Assembly (NCBI GenBank): GCA_016198275.1
Contig: JACQIX010000038.1
Coordinates: 2,340-66,339, forward strand
Source of the DNA: Candidatus Daviesbacteria bacterium
GTDB lineage: Bacteria > Patescibacteriota > Microgenomatia > Daviesbacterales > UBA10151
Direction of reading: 5' to 3'
Length of the DNA stretch: 64,000 nt
Shown: piece after piece, positions 4,326 through 57,447 of the stretch
Layout of the letters: each line of letters opens with the position of its first letter
Numbering within the stretch: position 1 is the stretch's first letter
The notes under the pieces: generated by a model
What the model was told of the DNA's origin: nothing
Database searches by the model: none
What the model saw: only the letters and a program-made list of their open reading frames with translations
Translations under genes and position numbers: made by a program

Positions 4326-5636
4326 TTAGGAAACTTTATACATAGCTCTAAGCTCTTCAGCGTATAGTAAAGACCTATTAATGAAAGCACGACCCGAGCA
4401 ATCCGGAGAGTTTACCGGAAACCTCTTTTTAGGGAATAAGATAGTAAAACCTTCTTCTGCTCTCCTATTTCCATATAACTCATGTGCTCTACCGTTATGG
4501 AGACCGGTTTGGGGATCCCTCGTGCCAACTTCCAATCTGGAATTTAGATAAGTTTCGCGGTCGTAAAATATTAATTCTAAAGGAACTTGAATATCTTCAA
4601 ACCAGGTCCTTCTCCGCGCACTAAAATTCATTTCAGCAGCCTGACCATGATCTTTACCAGTCTTATCATCTTTTTCCACCCCTACAACTCTTAACTTAGG
4701 GTCAGAATTTATAATTGAAGCTGTCTTATCTGCCAATTCTTCTGGTTTAGCACGGTCATCCATTAAGACAATGATCATCCCAATTGGGTCCAGAACACCA
4801 GTATCCATATGATTTATATCAACCACTCCACCATTTTTTTTAGCTTTGACTAAACATTTAATTACCGCCAATCTATCATCCTTTTTTCTAGGACTCGTAT
4901 ATACCATTAGTTCGTCTTTACCTACATCTATCACTTCACGTCGTATTTTACGAACGGTAGTTGGCACTGTTTTTAAATGAGCTGTAGCAGGAATTCGTTG
5001 CATTGTATTCGGGAATCCAATTACTTGATTGGTTTCATCATCATGAATAGATCCCAAGACAACTCTGCTTCCAGCCCCTACTGGACCTGAAAAATATACC
5101 TGGTTTAGTAGACGGTGAACATCAGATAATCTGGTACGGAGCCTATTATTTAACGTTCGGGAGGCAATCATTGCTGAAATATCCGTCACAAGTATATGTC
5201 TATGAGCCTCATAGGCTAAAACAGGATCAATTTGACCTTCCGGCATGGATGCTAATTCAAATAGATTACTTGGCCTATCTGAAAGTAAACTAATCTCATC
5301 TTTTAATTCCAAACCATCTAATGCTGGTAAAAGTGCGTGATAAAACTCAATAATTCCTATTGCGTGCTTTTGATTTTGCAAATAGAACTCACGAAGATCC
5401 ACATATTCTGGCAAAGAATAACGTATCCTACTAGATCCAAAAACATAATCATCAATAGCTTTAGGCGCATCCTCGGGTAAATTACCTCCAGCTCTCATTA
5501 TTTTACGAAAGCGCAAACTATCCCTGCCCCACCTATCCCTCATTAACAATGCCAACTGACGATTAGTCTCAGGCATCCGATCTTCAACTTCGGGCTGAAA
5601 CATATCTATTGTGACAGGTATTATTTTTTCTGACAT
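4326..5636 (-). CDS. Hypothetical 436-aa protein, possibly a RelA/SpoT-like nucleotidyltransferase fold (weak)
   Basis: This is a long ORF with an SD (aagga). Motifs occur in the order SPRKKDDRLAVIKCLVKAKK, VLDPIGMIIVLMDD, KDHGQAAEMNFS, PLELIFYDRETYLNS, GRAHELYGNRR. That order parallels the RxKxxxSxxxK / DxxGxRhh / GYxSxH / EhQhRT / HxxYK order of RSH synthetase domains. It looks richer in G+C codons than its neighbours. Confidence 0.6.
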   Translation of the reverse strand: MSEKIIPVTIDMFQPEVEDRMPETNRQLALLMRDRWGRDSLRFRKIMRAGGNLPEDAPKAIDDYVFGSSRIRYSLPEYVDLREFYLQNQKHAIGIIEFYHALLPALDGLELKDEISLLSDRPSNLFELASMPEGQIDPVLAYEAHRHILVTDISAMIASRTLNNRLRTRLSDVHRLLNQVYFSGPVGAGSRVVLGSIHDDETNQVIGFPNTMQRIPATAHLKTVPTTVRKIRREVIDVGKDELMVYTSPRKKDDRLAVIKCLVKAKKNGGVVDINHMDTGVLDPIGMIIVLMDDRAKPEELADKTASIINSDPKLRVVGVEKDDKTGKDHGQAAEMNFSARRRTWFEDIQVPLELIFYDRETYLNSRLEVGTRDPQTGLHNGRAHELYGNRRAEEGFTILFPKKRFPVNSPDCSGRAFINRSLLYAEELRAMYKVS

Positions 5637-5889: not shown

Positions 5890-6315
5890 TTATGATTCCA
5901 CCTCTTCCAAAAATTGAACTGGAGTAACAATTTTAATTCCCTTAAACATTCCCAATTCTAACAAATCCTGATCTCCTGTGATAATAAAATCACATCTGCC
6001 CTCAACTGCTGCCTCTAACACTTTGTTATCATCTATATCCCTGACAATATTAAGTGACTTTTTTGGCTGCACTATCAGAAAAGATTCATTTATACTGGCT
6101 TCAATACCAAGTAAATCAGGGATTAGCTTGGGAAACTTTTTATTTATAACCTCTATCAACTCTATTAAAAGTACTGGCGAGATAACACCTTTGATTTTCT
6201 CTTGTATTGCAAGTAATAGTGCTGCCCTGGGAGCACCACCAAAACCAATTGCTGAAATCAAAATATTGGTATCAAGAACAACTCTAACATGGTTTTCGCC
6301 CGTGCCTGAATTCAT
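5890..6315 (-). CDS. PIN-domain toxin (VapC-like)
   Basis: VVLDTNILISA is the first acidic motif. DNKVLEAAVEG and ITGDQDLL are typical PIN signatures. It overlaps the upstream RHH gene. Confidence 0.85.
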   Translation of the reverse strand: MNSGTGENHVRVVLDTNILISAIGFGGAPRAALLLAIQEKIKGVISPVLLIELIEVINKKFPKLIPDLLGIEASINESFLIVQPKKSLNIVRDIDDNKVLEAAVEGRCDFIITGDQDLLELGMFKGIKIVTPVQFLEEVES

Positions 6316-6535
6316 AAACTATTTCATTAATTTGATCTTCGCTCTTAATTCCCATCTTTTTCATTACTCTCTCTCCCGCTTTGAAAATACGATCCCACGA
6401 ATCTTTCCTTTCCATATATATCCTTAATGCTTCTCTTATTAACTCTGAACGATTCCGATATTCTTTTTTTGCCCTCTCATCTACTTTTTTGACTAATTCT
6501 TTTGGTAAAGAAATATTAAATGTTTGTGTTTGCAT
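6284..6535 (-). CDS. Ribbon-helix-helix (CopG/RHH) antitoxin
   Basis: FNISLPKELVKKVDERAKKEYRNRSELIREALRIYM has the RHH pattern. It lies upstream of and overlaps the PIN gene. Confidence 0.8.
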   Translation of the reverse strand: MQTQTFNISLPKELVKKVDERAKKEYRNRSELIREALRIYMERKDSWDRIFKAGERVMKKMGIKSEDQINEIVYEFRHGRKPC

Positions 6536-6566
6536 ACAAATATTGTATAGATTTTGTATATATCTG

Positions 6567-7310
6567 TCAAGGCTTTAGCTTCCTGGGCCTAACCCCATCA
6601 TATTCAATTTCTTCACCAGGTATTCTTCTAAATGGCTTTTCGCGGATATATTCTTCAAAAATGTGAGCTACCAATCCCACTACCCTGCCGATAATAAAAA
6701 ATCCTTTGCCCAATCTATAGTTAAACCCCATTTCAGAAATTACTGCTGCTATTGCCCCGTCCACATTTATGGGGATTTTTTTACCTTTTTTTTCTTCCAA
6801 AACTTTTTCCACCTCAACTGCTAATTTACAATATTCTCCCCAAAAACCTAAACTTTTTGCTTTGGCAAAAATTTGAGTAGCTCTGGGATCTTCTGTATAA
6901 ACTTTATGACCATAGCCCGGGACCCTATCACCTGATCCAATCACCTTTTCCACCAGTTTCTCTGCTGTCGAACCCATCTGTAGTAATCTAGCGCACTCCT
7001 CTATTGCCCCTCCATGAAATTCCCCTATCCCTAAAACTCCGGCAGCTACTGCTGCCTGCATCGGATTTCCGGCAGAGGCGCAGTTTCTGGCATTCGTTAC
7101 AGAAGGTGGCCCCAGACCATTGTCTATAGTGGAGATCAATATTGCATCCAGCATGGCTTTTTCTTTATCTGTAGGAAGTTCTCCTTTTAACTCTAACCAG
7201 ATTGCATCAGTAAAATTTACTTTGTCTATTAAATCAGTCACTTCGTACCCATGAATATGGGCTTCCCCGTCAATAATCCCAGCAATAGACGTTTTCCATT
7301 TTTTATCCAT
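6567..7310 (-). CDS. Citrate-synthase-like / citryl-CoA lyase domain protein (C-terminal part of ATP-citrate lyase alpha)
   Basis: The motifs are GLGPPSVTNARNCASAG, FHGGAIE and VPGYGHKVYTEDPRA. It is the last gene of the ACL-like cluster. Confidence 0.7.
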   Translation of the reverse strand: MDKKWKTSIAGIIDGEAHIHGYEVTDLIDKVNFTDAIWLELKGELPTDKEKAMLDAILISTIDNGLGPPSVTNARNCASAGNPMQAAVAAGVLGIGEFHGGAIEECARLLQMGSTAEKLVEKVIGSGDRVPGYGHKVYTEDPRATQIFAKAKSLGFWGEYCKLAVEVEKVLEEKKGKKIPINVDGAIAAVISEMGFNYRLGKGFFIIGRVVGLVAHIFEEYIREKPFRRIPGEEIEYDGVRPRKLKP

Positions 7311-13783: not shown

Positions 13784-14009
13784 GTGTAGTTTTGCCTTTA
13801 GTTGTTTTAAAATATTCTTCTCTTCTTATGGCATCCTTTTTACTTAAATATGCTTCATAGAAGATTAGCTTAAGTGGCATATAGCCTTTCGTAGATAAAT
13901 TTTCTCCATTATTATGACTTTTAAATCTTTTTCTTAAATCACCTGTGGATCCTACATAAATCCAATCACGGCTTAAACTTTGGAGTACATAAACATAATA
14001 GAATTTCAC
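13770..14009 (-). CDS. GIY-YIG nuclease family protein
   Basis: FYYVYVLQSLSRDWIYVGSTGDLRKRFKSHNNG is the N-terminal signature, and RREEYFK follows later. Confidence 0.8.
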   Translation of the reverse strand: MKFYYVYVLQSLSRDWIYVGSTGDLRKRFKSHNNGENLSTKGYMPLKLIFYEAYLSKKDAIRREEYFKTTKGKTTLVLY

Positions 14010-14021
14010 ACCTCTATCTTA

Positions 14022-14108
14022 CCAAAAAGAAAGGGGCGCACCATACGGTGCACCCCTCACTTACCTTCGTTGCAGGCTGCTGTGCAGTCATGCACCATTC
14101 GGTGCATG
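14022..14108 (-). terminator. Pair of GC-rich hairpins, the distal one followed by a T-run on the minus strand
   Basis: The hairpins are ggggcgcacc-atac-ggtgcacccc and catgcacc-attc-ggtgcatg. After the first, the minus strand continues ttcttttt. They lie downstream of the gene 14169..14750. Confidence 0.5.
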
Positions 14109-53368: not shown

Positions 53369-53548
53369 ATGAAAAAAGGGTTAGTAACTGTTAAAAAGGC
53401 AGCAGAAATAATGGGAGTTAGTGTTCAAACTGTTATTAGATGGGATAAAAAGGGGAAATTAAAAGCTACAAGGCACCCAATGAATAATTATCGTTTATAT
53501 AGATTAGTTGATCTTCAAACCATTGCAAAGAAAGTAGGAGAAGAATGA
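53369..53548 (+). CDS. Excisionase/MerR-type HTH DNA-binding protein
   Basis: VTVKKAAEIMGVSVQTVIRWDKKGKLKATR is the motif. Its stop overlaps the recombinase start by 4 nt. Confidence 0.65.
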   Translation: MKKGLVTVKKAAEIMGVSVQTVIRWDKKGKLKATRHPMNNYRLYRLVDLQTIAKKVGEE

Positions 53549-55125
53549 ACGATATTACAGTTCTAACTTATGAGAGGGTTTCAACAGAAGATCAAACAGT
53601 CACTAAATCTTGTGATGACCAGAAAACTGTTAATGATAGGTTTATTGCTTCTCAAGGCTGGAAAGTGGCAGAAAACGGTGATTATAGGGATGAGGGTATA
53701 TCTGGTTCAACTATAGATAGACCAGGAGTACAAGACATACTAATAAGATGTGGTGAGGACAAAACCATTAAAGCTATCGTTGTAACTGAATCAGATAGAA
53801 TAGCCAGAGGTAATTTAGCATATTTATTCATCAGAGAGGCACTTAAAAAGTATGGAGTAAAGATTGTGGCTGTCACCCAACCAATGATTGATGATAGTGA
53901 TGAAGGTGAAATGATTGGTGAGATTATGGGTGCTGTTAATGGGTTCTTAGGAAAAATAACTAGGCGTAAATCTATGAGAGCCCTAGATGAGAAAGCAGCT
54001 AGAGGTTGGTGGCCTGGGAAAGCCCCCATAGGCTACAAAAACGTCAATATTGGTACAGAAGAGAAGCCTGATAGGATTATTGAAGTTGATGAAGATTTTG
54101 CTCCTTACGTTCGCCAAATTCCCTCTTGGTATAATCAGGGCTATTCCTACCAAGATATTGCTGACAAACTTCATGGACAAGGATTAATAGGAAAGTTAAA
54201 TGGGAAGGTATCTCCTGAAGAGGTTAGAAAGATTATTTTCAATGATTTTTATTTAGGGGAGTTTTTGTGGAGAGGTAAAAAATATAAGGCAAATCATCCC
54301 CCACTCTTGAGATACTTAGAAGTCCATAAAGCACGTAGTAGATCCAAAGAAAAAGGACATACTCATAGCACAAAAGAATTAAAAGACAAATTTCCTTATA
54401 AGAAACTAGATTTTTATTGCTTTGATTGCAAGGACTTAAGAATTACAGCAGAATCTAAAACTAAACACTACCCACGTACTAATAGAACTGTTGAATATAC
54501 CTTTTATCACTGTACTAAATCTAAAGGTGGGTGGTCTAAGTGCACTCAGCCTAGTATTAATAAGGAAGATCTCATTGTACAACTGGCACAAAAAGTAGTA
54601 CTTCCAATCGAGGTTGACGAAGAATTGGCTGAATTTATATTTGAAGAAATGAACAATCAATATACTCATAATAAGGAGGAACAGGCGCAATTCTCACATT
54701 CGATTAATAGACGTTTGGGACAAATAGATATAGAGCTTCAAAATCTTATGGAAATGCGTATAGCAGGTAAAATCCTGCCAATTGGCAATAAAACCCCTGA
54801 TGAAGTTTATGAAGAATATGTAGGCAAAAAGGAATTTGAAAGAAAAAACTTATTATCTACTAAGTTAAAACTGGAAAATAATAGTCTTGAATGGCGTAAA
54901 AAAGCTTCGAACTTCCTTACGGATTGTCAGGATGCCACAAACAAATTTCTAAAAGCTGAGGATGAGAAAAAAGTTAAATTTTTAAGGCGTATAACTTCGA
55001 ACCTATTTTTAAACAACAAAGAGCTTGTTGTGACGCACCAATTTCCCTTTAGCTACCTCCTAAAAGAAGGCAGCCATCCTTCTGTGCTCCCCCGCGTGGA
55101 TTCGAACCACGAACCTCGATCTTAA
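53545..55125 (+). CDS. Large serine recombinase
   Basis: The N-terminal resolvase domain reads LTYERVSTEDQ with the catalytic Ser. A recombinase domain, a Cys-rich zinc ribbon (CFDC..CTKSKGGWSKC) and a coiled coil follow. The last 13 codons are read off the antisense of tRNA-Asn. Confidence 0.85.
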   Translation: MNDITVLTYERVSTEDQTVTKSCDDQKTVNDRFIASQGWKVAENGDYRDEGISGSTIDRPGVQDILIRCGEDKTIKAIVVTESDRIARGNLAYLFIREALKKYGVKIVAVTQPMIDDSDEGEMIGEIMGAVNGFLGKITRRKSMRALDEKAARGWWPGKAPIGYKNVNIGTEEKPDRIIEVDEDFAPYVRQIPSWYNQGYSYQDIADKLHGQGLIGKLNGKVSPEEVRKIIFNDFYLGEFLWRGKKYKANHPPLLRYLEVHKARSRSKEKGHTHSTKELKDKFPYKKLDFYCFDCKDLRITAESKTKHYPRTNRTVEYTFYHCTKSKGGWSKCTQPSINKEDLIVQLAQKVVLPIEVDEELAEFIFEEMNNQYTHNKEEQAQFSHSINRRLGQIDIELQNLMEMRIAGKILPIGNKTPDEVYEEYVGKKEFERKNLLSTKLKLENNSLEWRKKASNFLTDCQDATNKFLKAEDEKKVKFLRRITSNLFLNNKELVVTHQFPFSYLLKEGSHPSVLPRVDSNHEPRS

Positions 55126-55158
55126 CAGGATCTCGCTCTACCGTTGAGCTACAGGGGA
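55087..55158 (-). tRNA. tRNA-Asn, anticodon GUU
   Basis: TCCCCTG-TA-GCTC-AACGGTA-GAGC-G-AGATC-CTGTTAA-GATCG-AGGTT-CGTGG-TTCGAAT-CCACG-CGGGGGA-G. Confidence 0.85.
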
Positions 55159-55404
55159 ATGTATTAAGTTTTTAATGAACTGACGACCTCGATAACTTTT
55201 TAACTGCCTCTCTCTTATTAGAGCTGCTTGCCTAGTTTCGCACTCTTCTTTGTAAAGAAATACCCACTCTCCATCAAACTTAGCAGTATAACTATTCCTA
55301 AATTCCTTATCGTTGTGCAATTTAATCCTCTGATCCAAATTATCAGTTTGACCTATGTAGATTTTACAATGCTTCTTGTTATAAATACTATAAACATAAA
55401 ACAT
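55138..55404 (-). CDS. GIY-YIG nuclease family protein
   Basis: MFYVYSIYNKKHCKIYIGQTDNLDQRIKLHN is the N-terminal signature. The start is Met19 of the tracked ORF. Its last codons overlap the 5' end of tRNA-Asn. Confidence 0.8.
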   Translation of the reverse strand: MFYVYSIYNKKHCKIYIGQTDNLDQRIKLHNDKEFRNSYTAKFDGEWVFLYKEECETRQAALIRERQLKSYRGRQFIKNLIHSPVAQR

Positions 55405-55413
55405 ATTTAATCC

Positions 55414-55454
55414 CGCTCTACCTCCGCCAGCTGGCGGAGAGCTACAGGGGAATA
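55414..55454 (-). repeat. Degenerate duplicate of the 5' part of tRNA-Asn with a 16-nt palindrome replacing part of the D-loop
   Basis: The minus strand reads TCCCCTGTAGCTC-TCCGCCAGCTGGCGGA-GGTAGAGCGGGA. The functional tRNA reads TCCCCTGTAGCTC-AAC-GGTAGAGCGAGA. Confidence 0.75.
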
Positions 55455-55528
55455 TCAATGTACGAGTGATATTCTATCATCCAATAATGCCTAAATCCAC
55501 CCTAATCTTCTCTGTTATAATCCAACTA

Positions 55529-56368
55529 ATGTCTGTTAAAAAAATAGCTCTTTTGATTCTTGGAATTCTGGTAATCCTTATTTCAATCTATTCCTATAAA
55601 CTTTTAAACAAAAATAAACCTCTTGATTACACCCTGGTGTTTGTTGGAGATTCTATGACAGAATATTTGGGTAATTTTGATGAATTAAGAAATTATTTAA
55701 AAAAATATTACCCTAATAAAAATTATACGCTTTTAAATTATGGCTTTAGTTCAACTAATATTTTATCTGTCCCGGATAGAATGGAAAAACTAACTGACCG
55801 TGCAGGAAGAGGTTTTCGACCGATCAATGATATAACCTTTGACTTAATATTTATTGAATCTTTTGGCTACAACCCTTTATCACAATTTTCTCTGGCAGAC
55901 GGATTAAAAAAGCAAAAAGAAACTTTAGATCAGATTATCAATATCATTATTCAAAAACACCCTAAAGCCAGTATTGTTTTTATAGCAACTATTGCTCCTA
56001 ATAAAGAAGTATTCGGAGGAGGAGTATTAAATCTGCTGCCTGATCAAAAAAAGCAGTGGGTTAGCGAAAGAATTGCCTATATTAAAAACCATATTGAATA
56101 TGCCAAATCTCACAATATTCCCCTGATAAATATTTATCAAAATAGTTTAAACGAAAAGGGTGACGGGAACATTGATTATATAAATAGTACTGATTTTATC
56201 CACCCCTCCCCTACTGGAATTTACTTTATCAGCAAACAGATAGCAGATTTTATTTTGTGCGAGAATACTCCGCCTTTGGCGGGGGATAAACGCACGAAAG
56301 AACTTGTCCCGCCTTTTGCGGGATACCCCACTGCTTGCAGTGGGGAGGGGTTCATTTATTCCAGATAG
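55529..56368 (+). CDS. SGNH/GDSL-family hydrolase with an N-terminal anchor
   Basis: [11 protein letters not shown] is block I (GDS). The C-terminal DFIHPS resembles the block V DxxH. The last ~30 codons run through GC-rich hairpin repeats. The start at 55529 is preferred. Confidence 0.65.
56269..56345. repeat. Three GC-rich hairpins between convergent genes (probable terminators / dispersed repeat copies)
   Basis: The hairpins are tccgcc-ttt-ggcggg, cccgc-ctttt-gcggg and ccccactgc-tt-gcagtgggg. Confidence 0.6.
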
Positions 56369-57447
56369 TCCCTTAGTTTCTTGGCCCTGGTTGGGTGTTT
56401 TAGCTTTCTGATGGCTTTGGCTTCAATTTGCCTGATTCGCTCGCGTGTGACCCCAAACTCTTTGCCTACTTCCTCCAATGTCCTTTGTTTTCCATCTTCC
56501 AACCCAAACCTAAGTTGTAACACTCTTTTTTCCCTGGGAGATAACGAGTCTAAAACTTCATCCAAATGAATTTTTAAAAGTTCCCTGGTGGCTTGTTCAT
56601 CCGGCTGCAAGCCCTGATCAGCAATAAAATCCCCCAAATGTGAATCTTCCTCGTCCCCCACCGGAGTTTCCAAGGAGGTGGGCTCTTGTGAAACTTTTAT
56701 AATTTCTCTGGCTTTGCTTTCGTCAATACCAGAAGCCCTAGCTACTTCCTCAGGTAAAGGTTCCCTGCCCAACTCTTGCATTAGCCTACGTTGAGTTCGG
56801 TTAAAACGGTTGATGGTTTCCACCATATGAACCGGAATTCTGATGGTTCTGGCCTGATCCGCAATTGCCCGGGTGATAGCCTGACGGATCCACCAAGTGG
56901 CATAAGTGGAAAATTTGTAGCCTCTTCTCCAGTCATATTTATCAACCGCCCTCATCAGCCCAATATTCCCTTCCTCTATTAAATCCAGCAAGCTCATCCC
57001 CCTACCAACATATTTTTTAGCAATGGAAACAACCAATCTTAAATTAGCTGAAATTAACTTATCGCGGGCAATTTTGACATTTTTCTCTGCTTTTTTGGCC
57101 AGTTCAATCTCATCAGCAGCTGTTAAAAGCGGAATTTTACCAATATCCCGAAGATACTGCCTGACAGGATCTGTCACAGACCCTTCTTCCAAGGTAGATA
57201 AAACCTCCAGTTCCTTTTCCAACTCGGTGGCACTTTTGTTATCAGCTTCTAATTCTTCTGCTGTTGTTTCAAAAACATCAATATTATCCTTGATTAGCTT
57301 AATATAAAAAAGGTCTAGCTGTTCAATTGTTTCCTCTGGTTTTGGGAAAACTTGCAAAATCTCTTCCTGAGTAATAAAACCCCTCTCTTTACCGAGTTTA
57401 AGCAACTTTTTAATATCTAATGGTGTTTCTTTATTTTTTTTAGCCAT
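56356..57447 (-). CDS. rpoD: RNA polymerase sigma factor RpoD (sigma-70)
   Basis: Region 2 reads [27 protein letters not shown]. Region 4 reads [27 protein letters not shown]. Confidence 0.9.

Follow-up and report, generated by a model that had tools for sequence, protein, structure and literature searches.

An Ssn-like GIY-YIG nuclease gene and a 16-nt palindrome embedded in a partly duplicated tRNA-Asn gene of Candidate Phyla Radiation bacteria

In a 64-kb stretch of a Candidatus Daviesbacteria genome (the window; 64,000 nt of contig JACQIX010000038.1, assembly GCA_016198275.1), a small gene for a single-domain GIY-YIG nuclease lies between an intact tRNA-Asn gene and a displaced 5' part of the same gene, and this displaced part carries a 16-nt palindrome in its D loop. 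We found the same association in related genomes of the Candidate Phyla Radiation (CPR, also called Patescibacteria), where 78 of 81 loci have the palindrome no more than 130 nt upstream of the nuclease open reading frame (ORF), 55 of them as an exact copy of the 16-mer. This recurrence, in loci picked by similarity of the protein alone, is our strongest argument against a chance pairing of palindrome and ORF. We hold with moderate confidence that the Ssn-like nuclease makes up, with its cognate hairpin, an accessory cassette that is probably mobile or selfish and became lodged in the tRNA gene through a duplication that spared the tRNA. The feature looks like a tRNA-embedded variant of the Ssn nuclease-plus-hairpin kind that has not been described before; we did not find a tRNA-embedded arrangement of nuclease and hairpin in the searchable literature.

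The unit spans positions 55086-55479 of the window, on the minus strand, and consists of the following parts:

55086-55158, minus strand: intact tRNA-Asn(GTT), the inner, functional copy (ARAGORN; Rfam RF00005 at 61.2 bits, full length, gathering score 29).
55404-55138, minus strand: ORF for an 88-aa single-domain GIY-YIG protein of the Ssn-like type (Pfam PF01541, E=7.8e-15, residues 1-71).
55405-55409, minus strand: 5-nt spacer TAAAT from the outer fragment to the ATG (from sequence and alignment).
55410-55422, minus strand: part of the outer fragment after the palindrome, GGTAGAGCGGGAT, which matches tRNA positions 17-29 except for a G in place of A.
55423-55438: 16-nt palindrome TCCGCCAGCTGGCGGA in place of D-loop AAC, the proposed cognate hairpin.
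55439-55451, minus strand: part of the outer fragment before the palindrome, TCCCCTGTAGCTC, equal to tRNA positions 1-13 (5' strands of the acceptor stem and the D stem).
55471-55479, minus strand: extended -10-like box TGATAGAAT, read by eye, 19 nt upstream of the outer fragment.

The outer copy (55451-55410, minus strand) reads TCCCCTGTAGCTC-TCCGCCAGCTGGCGGA-GGTAGAGCGGGAT and agrees with the tRNA at 13 of 13 positions before the palindrome and at 12 of 13 after it. The 267-bp GIY-YIG ORF is the only ORF between the two tRNA repeats, and the cassette has no recombinase. The end of the ORF, TCC CCT GTA GCT CAA CGG TAG, is read from positions 1-21 of tRNA-Asn, whose first 21 bases double as the six last codons and the stop (TAG, tRNA positions 19-21). 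An earlier reading of this DNA from its letters alone (hereafter the sequence-only reading) had described a displaced, palindrome-bearing 5' copy of tRNA-Asn and an ORF between the two copies with its last codons taken from the tRNA, and the sequence bears out both, coordinates included. The D-loop palindrome that it reported is likewise present, as a replacement of three tRNA bases (AAC) and not as a pure insertion. An assembly artefact, which it had named as an alternative, is ruled out as the source of the duplication, because positions 55087-55999 are reproduced at 99.9% identity in an independent Logan assembly (L001, SRR12113429; L numbers denote loci throughout); the protein itself is 100% identical to a Daviesbacteria entry at NCBI. 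The TGATAGAAT box is probably the native promoter of the tRNA gene, which would now drive fragment, ORF and tRNA jointly. TATAAT-like boxes precede the outer fragment in many loci and precede the tRNA in the cassette-free locus L147, and a strict two-hexamer sigma-70 scan called no minus-strand promoter at the locus.

To place the unit among its relatives, one genome per species was scanned, and 346 genomes were found to encode a relative of the protein; we inspected the best 80 of these 346 loci (all from CPR, in many classes) together with a handful of more distant ones. The notion of a one-off footprint did not survive this comparison, since only 3 of the 80 related loci lack the cassette layout. 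In every one of the 80, the ORF is directly followed by a tRNA or by the end of the contig: tRNA-Asn in 66 (ARAGORN), tRNA-Lys in one, a tRNA-Asn split by an intron in 10, and a contig end or masked sequence in the remaining loci. The stop codon of the ORF lies inside the tRNA in 54 of the 64 loci in which this could be measured. In most loci the palindrome sits in the D loop of the displaced fragment, which starts about 4-15 nt before tRNA +1 and ends at positions 25-38, and the outer and inner copies have lineage-specific acceptor and anticodon-stem bases in common, which indicates that the fragment was usually copied from the local tRNA.

The palindrome is the most conserved sequence of the unit. 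Where both flanks can be located in the local tRNA, it takes the place of exactly three tRNA bases in 52 of 53 cases, and its variation is nearly limited to the central four bases. A compensatory arm change (TCCGGC...GCCGGA) is found in the sister loci L036 and L042, and arm variants track protein clades (L036/L042, L198, and L200). The distance from hairpin to ATG ranges from about 10 to 45 nt across loci. Some loci have nested palindromes, a second copy being set into the middle of the first, and in others the palindrome takes a different place in the fragment. Fragments and cassettes can both be repeated in tandem, and T-loop palindromes are carried by 3' pieces of a tRNA or by entire pseudo-tRNAs; redundant or pseudo-tRNA copies with palindromes are present in L052, L199, L201, L007, and L015. 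For the window, we rejected the idea that the palindrome is a genome-wide repeat: TCCGCCAGCTGGCGGA has no second copy in the 64 kb, a single occurrence compared with 0.05 copies expected by chance.

The same layout exists at tRNA genes other than tRNA-Asn. Specifically, a 5' fragment of the locus's own tRNA with the palindrome, then the ORF, and then the intact tRNA are found for tRNA-Lys-TTT (L072), tRNA-Lys-CTT (L202 and L203), and tRNA-Arg-TCT (L201), and in L199 the ORF is followed by tRNA-Lys and by two pseudo-tRNA-Lys copies, each with a palindrome in its D loop. A mirror form occurs in L198 (Ignavibacteriae, outside CPR) and L200, where tRNA-Asn is followed by a terminator, the ORF, and a 3' tRNA fragment in whose T loop three bases have given way to a covarying palindrome (TCCGTCAGCCGACGGA or TCCGTTAGCTAACGGA). 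The mirror unit is repeated twice in L198, and tandem units also occur in L058 and L079. The rule in all of these is that the ORF stands between an intact tRNA and a redundant part of that tRNA, with the palindrome in a loop of the redundant part.

We then compared how fast the parts of the unit diverge. From the window, the synonymous divergence (dS) of the ORF is 0.58 to L002, 0.78 to L003, and saturated to L004, with a third-position identity of 51-77%, and upstream of about -7 the DNA can no longer be aligned between the window and these three loci. The fragment, the palindrome, and the post-palindrome segment are 82-100% identical in the same comparisons. Because the silent sites of the ORF have diverged while the outer fragment has kept this identity, the fragment is not a decaying pseudogene, and since its outer-specific G (A in the tRNA) is common to the window, L003, and L002, it has not simply been overwritten by the tRNA either. 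The suggestion of an incidental mark on a decaying fragment thus fails on both counts, the exact 16-mer in 55 of 81 loci and a fragment that stays constant despite a dS of 0.6-0.8. Judged from these alignments, fragment and hairpin are under constraint.

Constraint of this kind bears on whether the cassette has been domesticated. In such a scenario, the nuclease would serve the host, for example by keeping recombination or transformation in check at tRNA-Asn, a hotspot of integration, and the fragment would be its leader or operator, acting as an RNA 5' stem-loop, as a minihelix-type processing signal, by masking the Shine-Dalgarno sequence, or as a DNA operator. We consider this doubtful. Fragment and hairpin are strongly kept right up to the ATG while the DNA upstream of about -7 varies freely, the 3' arm of the hairpin together with the D-loop GGT spells GGAGGT, and in many loci the ATG is preceded at 6-10 nt by a TATAAT, the hairpin then occupying the -35 region, all of which would suit a regulatory role. 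The same is true of the hairpin arms, which equal the acceptor stem of CPR tRNA-Lys and in nested forms give a 12-bp minihelix, of the host-level role of Neisseria SsnA in transformation, and of the synteny of rpoD and tRNA-Asn retained in 29 of 80 loci. However, the hairpin lies downstream of the ORF in the mirror form, some palindromes are found in pseudo-tRNAs that adjoin no ORF, and the hairpin-to-ATG spacing varies between about 10 and 45 nt. In addition, the fold of the whole unit as RNA is no better than that of shuffled sequence (z=-0.95), and the patchy distribution, the tandem copies, and the loss of the ORF speak against an essential host gene. In the minimum-free-energy structure the outer acceptor strand pairs with the tRNA 3' end, a trivial result of the duplication. 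Selection on the outer fragment to pair with the 3' half of the tRNA was rejected, as differences in L070, L081, and L002 break the pairing.

The genomic surroundings provide a record of gain and loss. The gene rpoD lies upstream of the cassette in 29 of the 80 loci, which makes rpoD-tRNA-Asn an old synteny, and cassette-free rpoD-tRNA-Asn intervals were found in L083 and L147; an RpoD metagenome scan returned mostly distant non-CPR genomes, and as a result few empty sites are informative. The claim that the cassette inserted at the tRNA and that the 5' part was duplicated stands in part: the ORF is embedded in the tRNA-Asn unit, empty sites exist (L083 and L147), and the layout has been re-created at Lys-TTT, Lys-CTT, and Arg-TCT. 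A fragment without a GIY-YIG gene, which the sequence-only reading had counted as telling against insertion, was seen once: in L152, fragment and palindrome stand directly before the tRNA with no ORF, which reads as ORF loss because the upstream DNA is homologous to that of the ORF-bearing L063. Pairwise identity of the GIY-YIG proteins is flat at about 0.61 and shows no correlation with RpoD identity (Spearman 0.08). For instance, L004 and L081 have an RpoD identity of 0.94 with a GIY-YIG identity of 0.59 and differ in palindrome position, and for L004 and L012 the values are 0.61 and 0.70. This pattern fits a turnover of cassettes at the locus but may also reflect saturation. Moreover, the outer fragments of L002 and L056 are of a foreign tRNA-Asn type, which implies that fragment and ORF were transferred jointly. 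The cassette is accessory, present in some lineages and absent in others.

The nuclease itself appears intact. The catalytic residues Y5, Y16, R26, H30, and E65 are kept in at least 95% of the 81 sequences, and the ratio of nonsynonymous to synonymous divergence (dN/dS) of the ORF is 0.07-0.19 in eleven close pairs; by these measures, the ORF is a working gene under purifying selection. An AlphaFold2 model (pLDDT 92) shows a bare GIY-YIG fold (beta-beta-alpha-beta-alpha) over residues 2-82, and because the tRNA-encoded tail (residues 83-88) is disordered, the overlap of ORF and tRNA looks incidental to the protein. The best PDB matches are UPF0213, Slx1/HIGLE, and I-TevI, and PADLOC, PHROGs, and NCBIfam return generic GIY-YIG or homing-endonuclease matches only. 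Ssn proteins (cd10448) are single-domain GIY-YIG nucleases of about 94 aa that bind the NTS/SRM hairpin repeat solely as single-stranded DNA, cleave a few bases upstream of the hairpin, and in Neisseria restrict incoming transforming DNA; their genes are typically flanked by their own hairpins in an insertion sequence (IS)-like layout, NTS-ssnA-NTS, and neither tRNA nor Patescibacteria comes up in the study that describes them (Chenal et al., 2025; PMC11893778). That study assigns proteins to the family by a top CDD hit to cd10448 or by a tblastn E<1e-10 to N. meningitidis SsnA. For comparison we collected a large family with a consensus sequence and found a member (L208-L210) that is flanked on both sides, in inverted orientation, by the canonical NTS TGTCATTCCCGCGCAAGCGGGAATCCA. 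Alignment of the CPR family with this NTS-flanked family by hhalign gave a probability of 97.8% (E=6.8e-13) over the full length at 24% identity, and pairwise BLAST also gave 24% identity (E=9e-6). Like Ssn proteins, the 88-aa chain is a single domain with no extra DNA-binding domain, and its genes have a hairpin of their own, upstream in 78 of 81 loci and downstream in the mirror loci. The SRM consensus HGTCWY..YYVSBRH..WNVSBRG..RNCYNB has no match in the window and 4 matches in 657 kb of the 80 cassette loci; in the positive controls, L208-L210, it matches on both sides of the gene. By profile and pairwise alignment, the CPR proteins are homologous to the Ssn family and can be called Ssn-like. 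In the three metagenome contigs L208-L210 (about 2470-2830), the Ssn-type gene with its inverted NTS lies between two succinyl-CoA ligase subunit genes, which, from the gene order, looks like an IS-type insertion inside an operon.

The sequence-only reading had proposed a homing-type mobility aimed at the tRNA gene. In its classical free-standing form, the enzyme would cut the double-stranded tRNA-Asn gene, repair would copy the ORF in, and the cassette would supply a replacement for the 5' half, by which the tRNA is regenerated. GIY-YIG and LAGLIDADG ORFs act in this way at gene ends in fungal mitochondria. The catalytic domain is of the right class, the cassette is present or absent at a conserved rpoD-tRNA-Asn site (29 loci with it, L083 and L147 empty, L152 a remnant), and in the 5' and mirror 3' forms alike the edge of the duplication falls near tRNA positions 37-45, where an insertion in mid-tRNA that replaces one half would put it. 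There are also precedents in the partial duplications of atp6 and cob beside homing endonuclease ORFs of fungal mitochondria (PMC6279837) and in the GIY-YIG enzyme SegB of T4, which is directed at a region of tRNA genes (PMC2330249). We nevertheless judge homing to be decidedly unlikely. The 88-aa chain is wholly taken up by the catalytic fold and lacks the DNA-binding domain of a classical homing endonuclease, and the nearest characterised relatives, the Ssn proteins, do not cut double-stranded DNA. Nor is the target destroyed as in homing: an intact copy of the presumed target adjoins the ORF, which leaves no self-immunity, and only the outer copy is interrupted. Homing would furthermore leave unexplained why an invariant 16-mer appears in D loops, in T loops, in acceptor stems, and in its own centre.

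We propose instead that the 16-nt GC-rich palindrome is the cognate recognition hairpin of the nuclease, in a cassette made up of the native promoter, a displaced tRNA segment from about -7 to about 29-38 with the hairpin in its D loop, the ORF, and the intact tRNA. By analogy with Neisseria SsnA, the protein would bind the hairpin only in single-stranded DNA, which may be provided by replication, by R-loops at the heavily transcribed tRNA gene, or by incoming transforming DNA, and it would nick a few bases beside the hairpin, that is, within the tRNA-like fragment. Such nicks may promote local recombination and thereby give rise to tandem fragments, tandem cassettes, and the spread of the hairpin into loops of redundant tRNAs, and the tRNA-derived repeats could act as portable homology arms for recombination into tRNA genes of other lineages. 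As the tRNA is probably single-copy, only arrangements that keep one hairpin-free tRNA would survive.

Several points weigh against this proposal. GIY-YIG enzymes are hydrolases and not strand transferases, and neither the insertion of the 16-mer with removal of three bases nor the insertion of the ORF is explained by it; the same is true of the identity of the palindrome arms with the acceptor stem of CPR tRNA-Lys. Specificity for single-stranded DNA and recognition of the hairpin are carried over by analogy from relatives with which the CPR proteins have only 24% identity. The palindrome misfits the degenerate SRM motif as published and lacks its conserved oriented flank, and it is a perfect palindrome whereas the NTS is directional. 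The constraint on the fragment could equally be explained by a cis-regulatory or RNA role, the flat relation between GIY-YIG and RpoD identity could result from saturation and not from horizontal transfer, and with the non-local fragments of L002 and L056 no single simple geometry of insertion fits all loci.

It is also conceivable, if rather improbable, that the palindrome itself is a minimal mobile element, one that enters the loops of DNA hairpins at the level of single-stranded DNA and replaces three bases there, through or together with the Ssn-like nuclease. Under this assumption tRNA genes would be natural targets, since their heavy transcription displaces a DNA strand that folds into a cloverleaf, and the tRNA duplications would be universal homology arms for natural transformation between distant lineages. 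If true, this would amount to a new, non-lethal parasitism of essential RNA genes and to a transposition-like process by a hydrolytic GIY-YIG enzyme. Origins of the palindrome by P-nucleotide or fold-back synthesis, as an excision footprint, or by arm slippage were considered and rejected, as none yields a constant sequence at unrelated sites.

A number of further observations concern the palindrome. Nested palindromes (L014, L003, L032, L015, L046, L047, and L029) read TCCGCC-[TCCGCCAGTTGGCGGA]-T-GGCGGA or the reverse complement of this, and their inner centre is nearly always AGTT and not AGCT, even across unrelated lineages, for which no mechanism that we considered accounts. The arms TCCGCC/GGCGGA equal the first six acceptor-stem base pairs of CPR tRNA-Lys genes (L072 and L199), a match that was noticed post hoc and has a coincidence chance of about 1%; the palindrome resembles an acceptor-stem microhelix, and the nested forms resemble a 12-bp minihelix. 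In L038 (about 4950-4985), a close relative of L023 and L047, the D-loop slot is filled by an unrelated AT-rich 16-mer of the palindrome's length, TTTATTAATCAGTGAA, and the same fragment keeps an intact palindrome in its acceptor part. In L051 (323-413), two palindromes 75 nt apart lie in an apparent lysine-rich coding repeat (KKHPPAGGKK), which suggests that the palindrome can also persist in coding sequence.

On its other side, the tRNA gene of the window is bordered by a second element:

53545-55125, plus strand: large serine recombinase of 526 aa (Pfam Resolvase and Recombinase), part of a neighbouring integrated element and not of the cassette.

The last ~13 codons of the recombinase are read from the complement of the tRNA-Asn 3' part. 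The sequence-only reading had seen in this a single tRNA used by two mobile elements, and the comparison strengthens that view: in at least 10 other loci (including L012, L016, L018, L025, L041, L054, L061, and L068), genes for homologues of the recombinase run up to or into the tRNA-Asn 3' end from the opposite strand. From this recurrence, tRNA-Asn seems to be a conserved site of attachment that a family of integrated elements uses in CPR genomes. The partial tRNA copy might be a passive by-product, namely an attachment site that an integrase-type element, such as that of the serine recombinase, duplicated long ago, with ORF and palindrome as unrelated passengers. In favour of this are the status of tRNA-Asn as an integration hotspot, which serine recombinase genes abut in many loci, and the displaced 3' fragments downstream of some tRNAs. 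Yet the repeats enclose only the 267-bp ORF and no recombinase, the three parts occur together in 78 of 81 loci whether a recombinase is nearby or not, the fragment is under constraint, and within the 64-kb window we found no displaced tRNA-Asn 3' half that could mark the far end (attachment site) of the serine-recombinase element. We regard this explanation as very improbable. Integrase-mediated integration of the cassette into the tRNA was likewise rejected, the recombinase being on the other side of the tRNA and outside the repeats.

Viewed against known systems, the cassette is closest to Ssn with its NTS/SRM repeats, with which it has in common a single-domain GIY-YIG protein of about 90 aa, the same catalytic spacing, a short GC-rich hairpin repeat, and an IS-like accessory layout. 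Unlike in that system, the protein is only 24% identical, the SRM does not fit the hairpin, a perfect palindrome of 16 nt without an oriented flank, a single low-copy hairpin is the usual state instead of an inverted pair or hundreds of copies, and the ORF is fused to a tRNA gene with the hairpin inside partial tRNA duplicates. As in tRNA-targeting integrative elements, a direct repeat of part of the tRNA flanks the insert and the tRNA stays intact, but the cassette has no integrase, its insert is only ~300 bp, and it is the 5' half that is duplicated, with the displaced copy interrupted by a palindrome. RAYT/REP and IS200/IS605 systems also pair a small nuclease gene with short palindromes that are recognised as single-stranded hairpins and apparently inserted at new sites; they do so with HUH/Y1 transposases and covalent intermediates, whereas the cassette encodes a GIY-YIG hydrolase and no such domain. 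GC-rich palindromic elements occur in fungal mitochondrial genomes as well. There, homing ORFs (atp6, cob, Endoconidiophora; PMC6279837) can stand between an intact gene and a displaced partial copy while the host gene remains functional, but these are organellar protein genes with the 3' end duplicated and no conserved palindrome on the displaced copy. T4 SegB and other free-standing GIY-YIG homing endonucleases (PMC2330249) are encoded among or beside tRNA genes, and enzymes of the SegB type promote their own inheritance; Seg proteins and I-TevI differ in having C-terminal DNA-binding domains, in cleaving double-stranded DNA, and in the absence of target duplication and palindrome. The family also differs from these phage systems in its distribution. 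Neither family members nor the palindrome in its D-arm context (the 25-mer GCTC-palindrome-GGTAG) were found in the viral contigs searched, and we rejected a phage origin on that basis; plasmid homologues of the family were not found either.

For the role of Ssn-type nucleases outside Neisseria and the way in which their hairpin repeats spread, the cassette offers a compact, low-copy case with one gene, one 16-nt hairpin, and a defined target class, tRNA genes. Relatives of the gene are encoded by at least 346 CPR species genomes and by some other bacteria. It becomes testable whether the pair of nuclease and hairpin is selfish, how half-duplication allows an element to occupy a tRNA gene that is essential and single-copy, and whether the enzyme drives the insertion of hairpins into DNA stem-loops. 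A nuclease with a 16-nt hairpin site would also add to the tools for single-stranded DNA.

A practical consequence concerns genome assembly and annotation, since CPR tRNA-Asn loci are frequent assembly break points and a source of spurious long ORF calls. Public contigs end at or within a few bases of the tRNA-Asn 3' end in L001, L002, L010, L023, L029, L036, L078, and L081, which suggests that strain heterogeneity or repeats at this end break assemblies. Of 60 representative proteins with ORF calls that overrun the flanks, 14 translate the palindrome (as PPAGG, SASWR, or RQLAE peptides), and about as many translate plain tRNAs.

In the ten loci with a split tRNA-Asn (L006, L009, L011, L020, L030, L031, L032, L059, L063, and L073), the tRNA gene beside the cassette has a group I intron inserted behind anticodon position 35, and Rfam RF00028 scored 65-88 bits in the four that were tested (L006, L009, L020, and L032). 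Introns of this kind are already known from CPR genomes (PMC13011429). The presence of the intron varies over a short evolutionary distance, since L020, which has it, and L024, which does not, are very close (ORF dS 0.067). We rejected a group I intron between the two tRNA copies of the window, where Rfam (E<=1 over 54000-57000) matches the tRNA alone and no ribozyme core.

Other small GIY-YIG genes provide additional points of comparison. In L161 (about 6275-6650), a tRNA-Asn without the cassette has directly downstream of it a gene of another small GIY-YIG subfamily (39% identical), and together with the many overrun ORF calls that translate whole tRNAs, this leads us to suppose that small GIY-YIG genes may quite generally tend to lie near tRNA genes. 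The window contains a second such gene at 13791-14003 on the minus strand, which encodes a protein of 73 aa that is 27% identical to the first and matches the Ssn-like family with an hhalign probability of 97.4%. No tRNA fragment accompanies this gene, and it shows no target duplication of the kind for which the sequence-only reading had suggested checking the other GIY-YIG copies. Just upstream of it are two private hairpins, TGCACCG[A/T]ATGGTGC (14038-14052 and 14092-14106), which occur nowhere else in the window and of which the proximal one doubles as a terminator-like stem. The arrangement of this second gene supports, at the level of sequence, the general rule that each small GIY-YIG gene has a private hairpin of its own.

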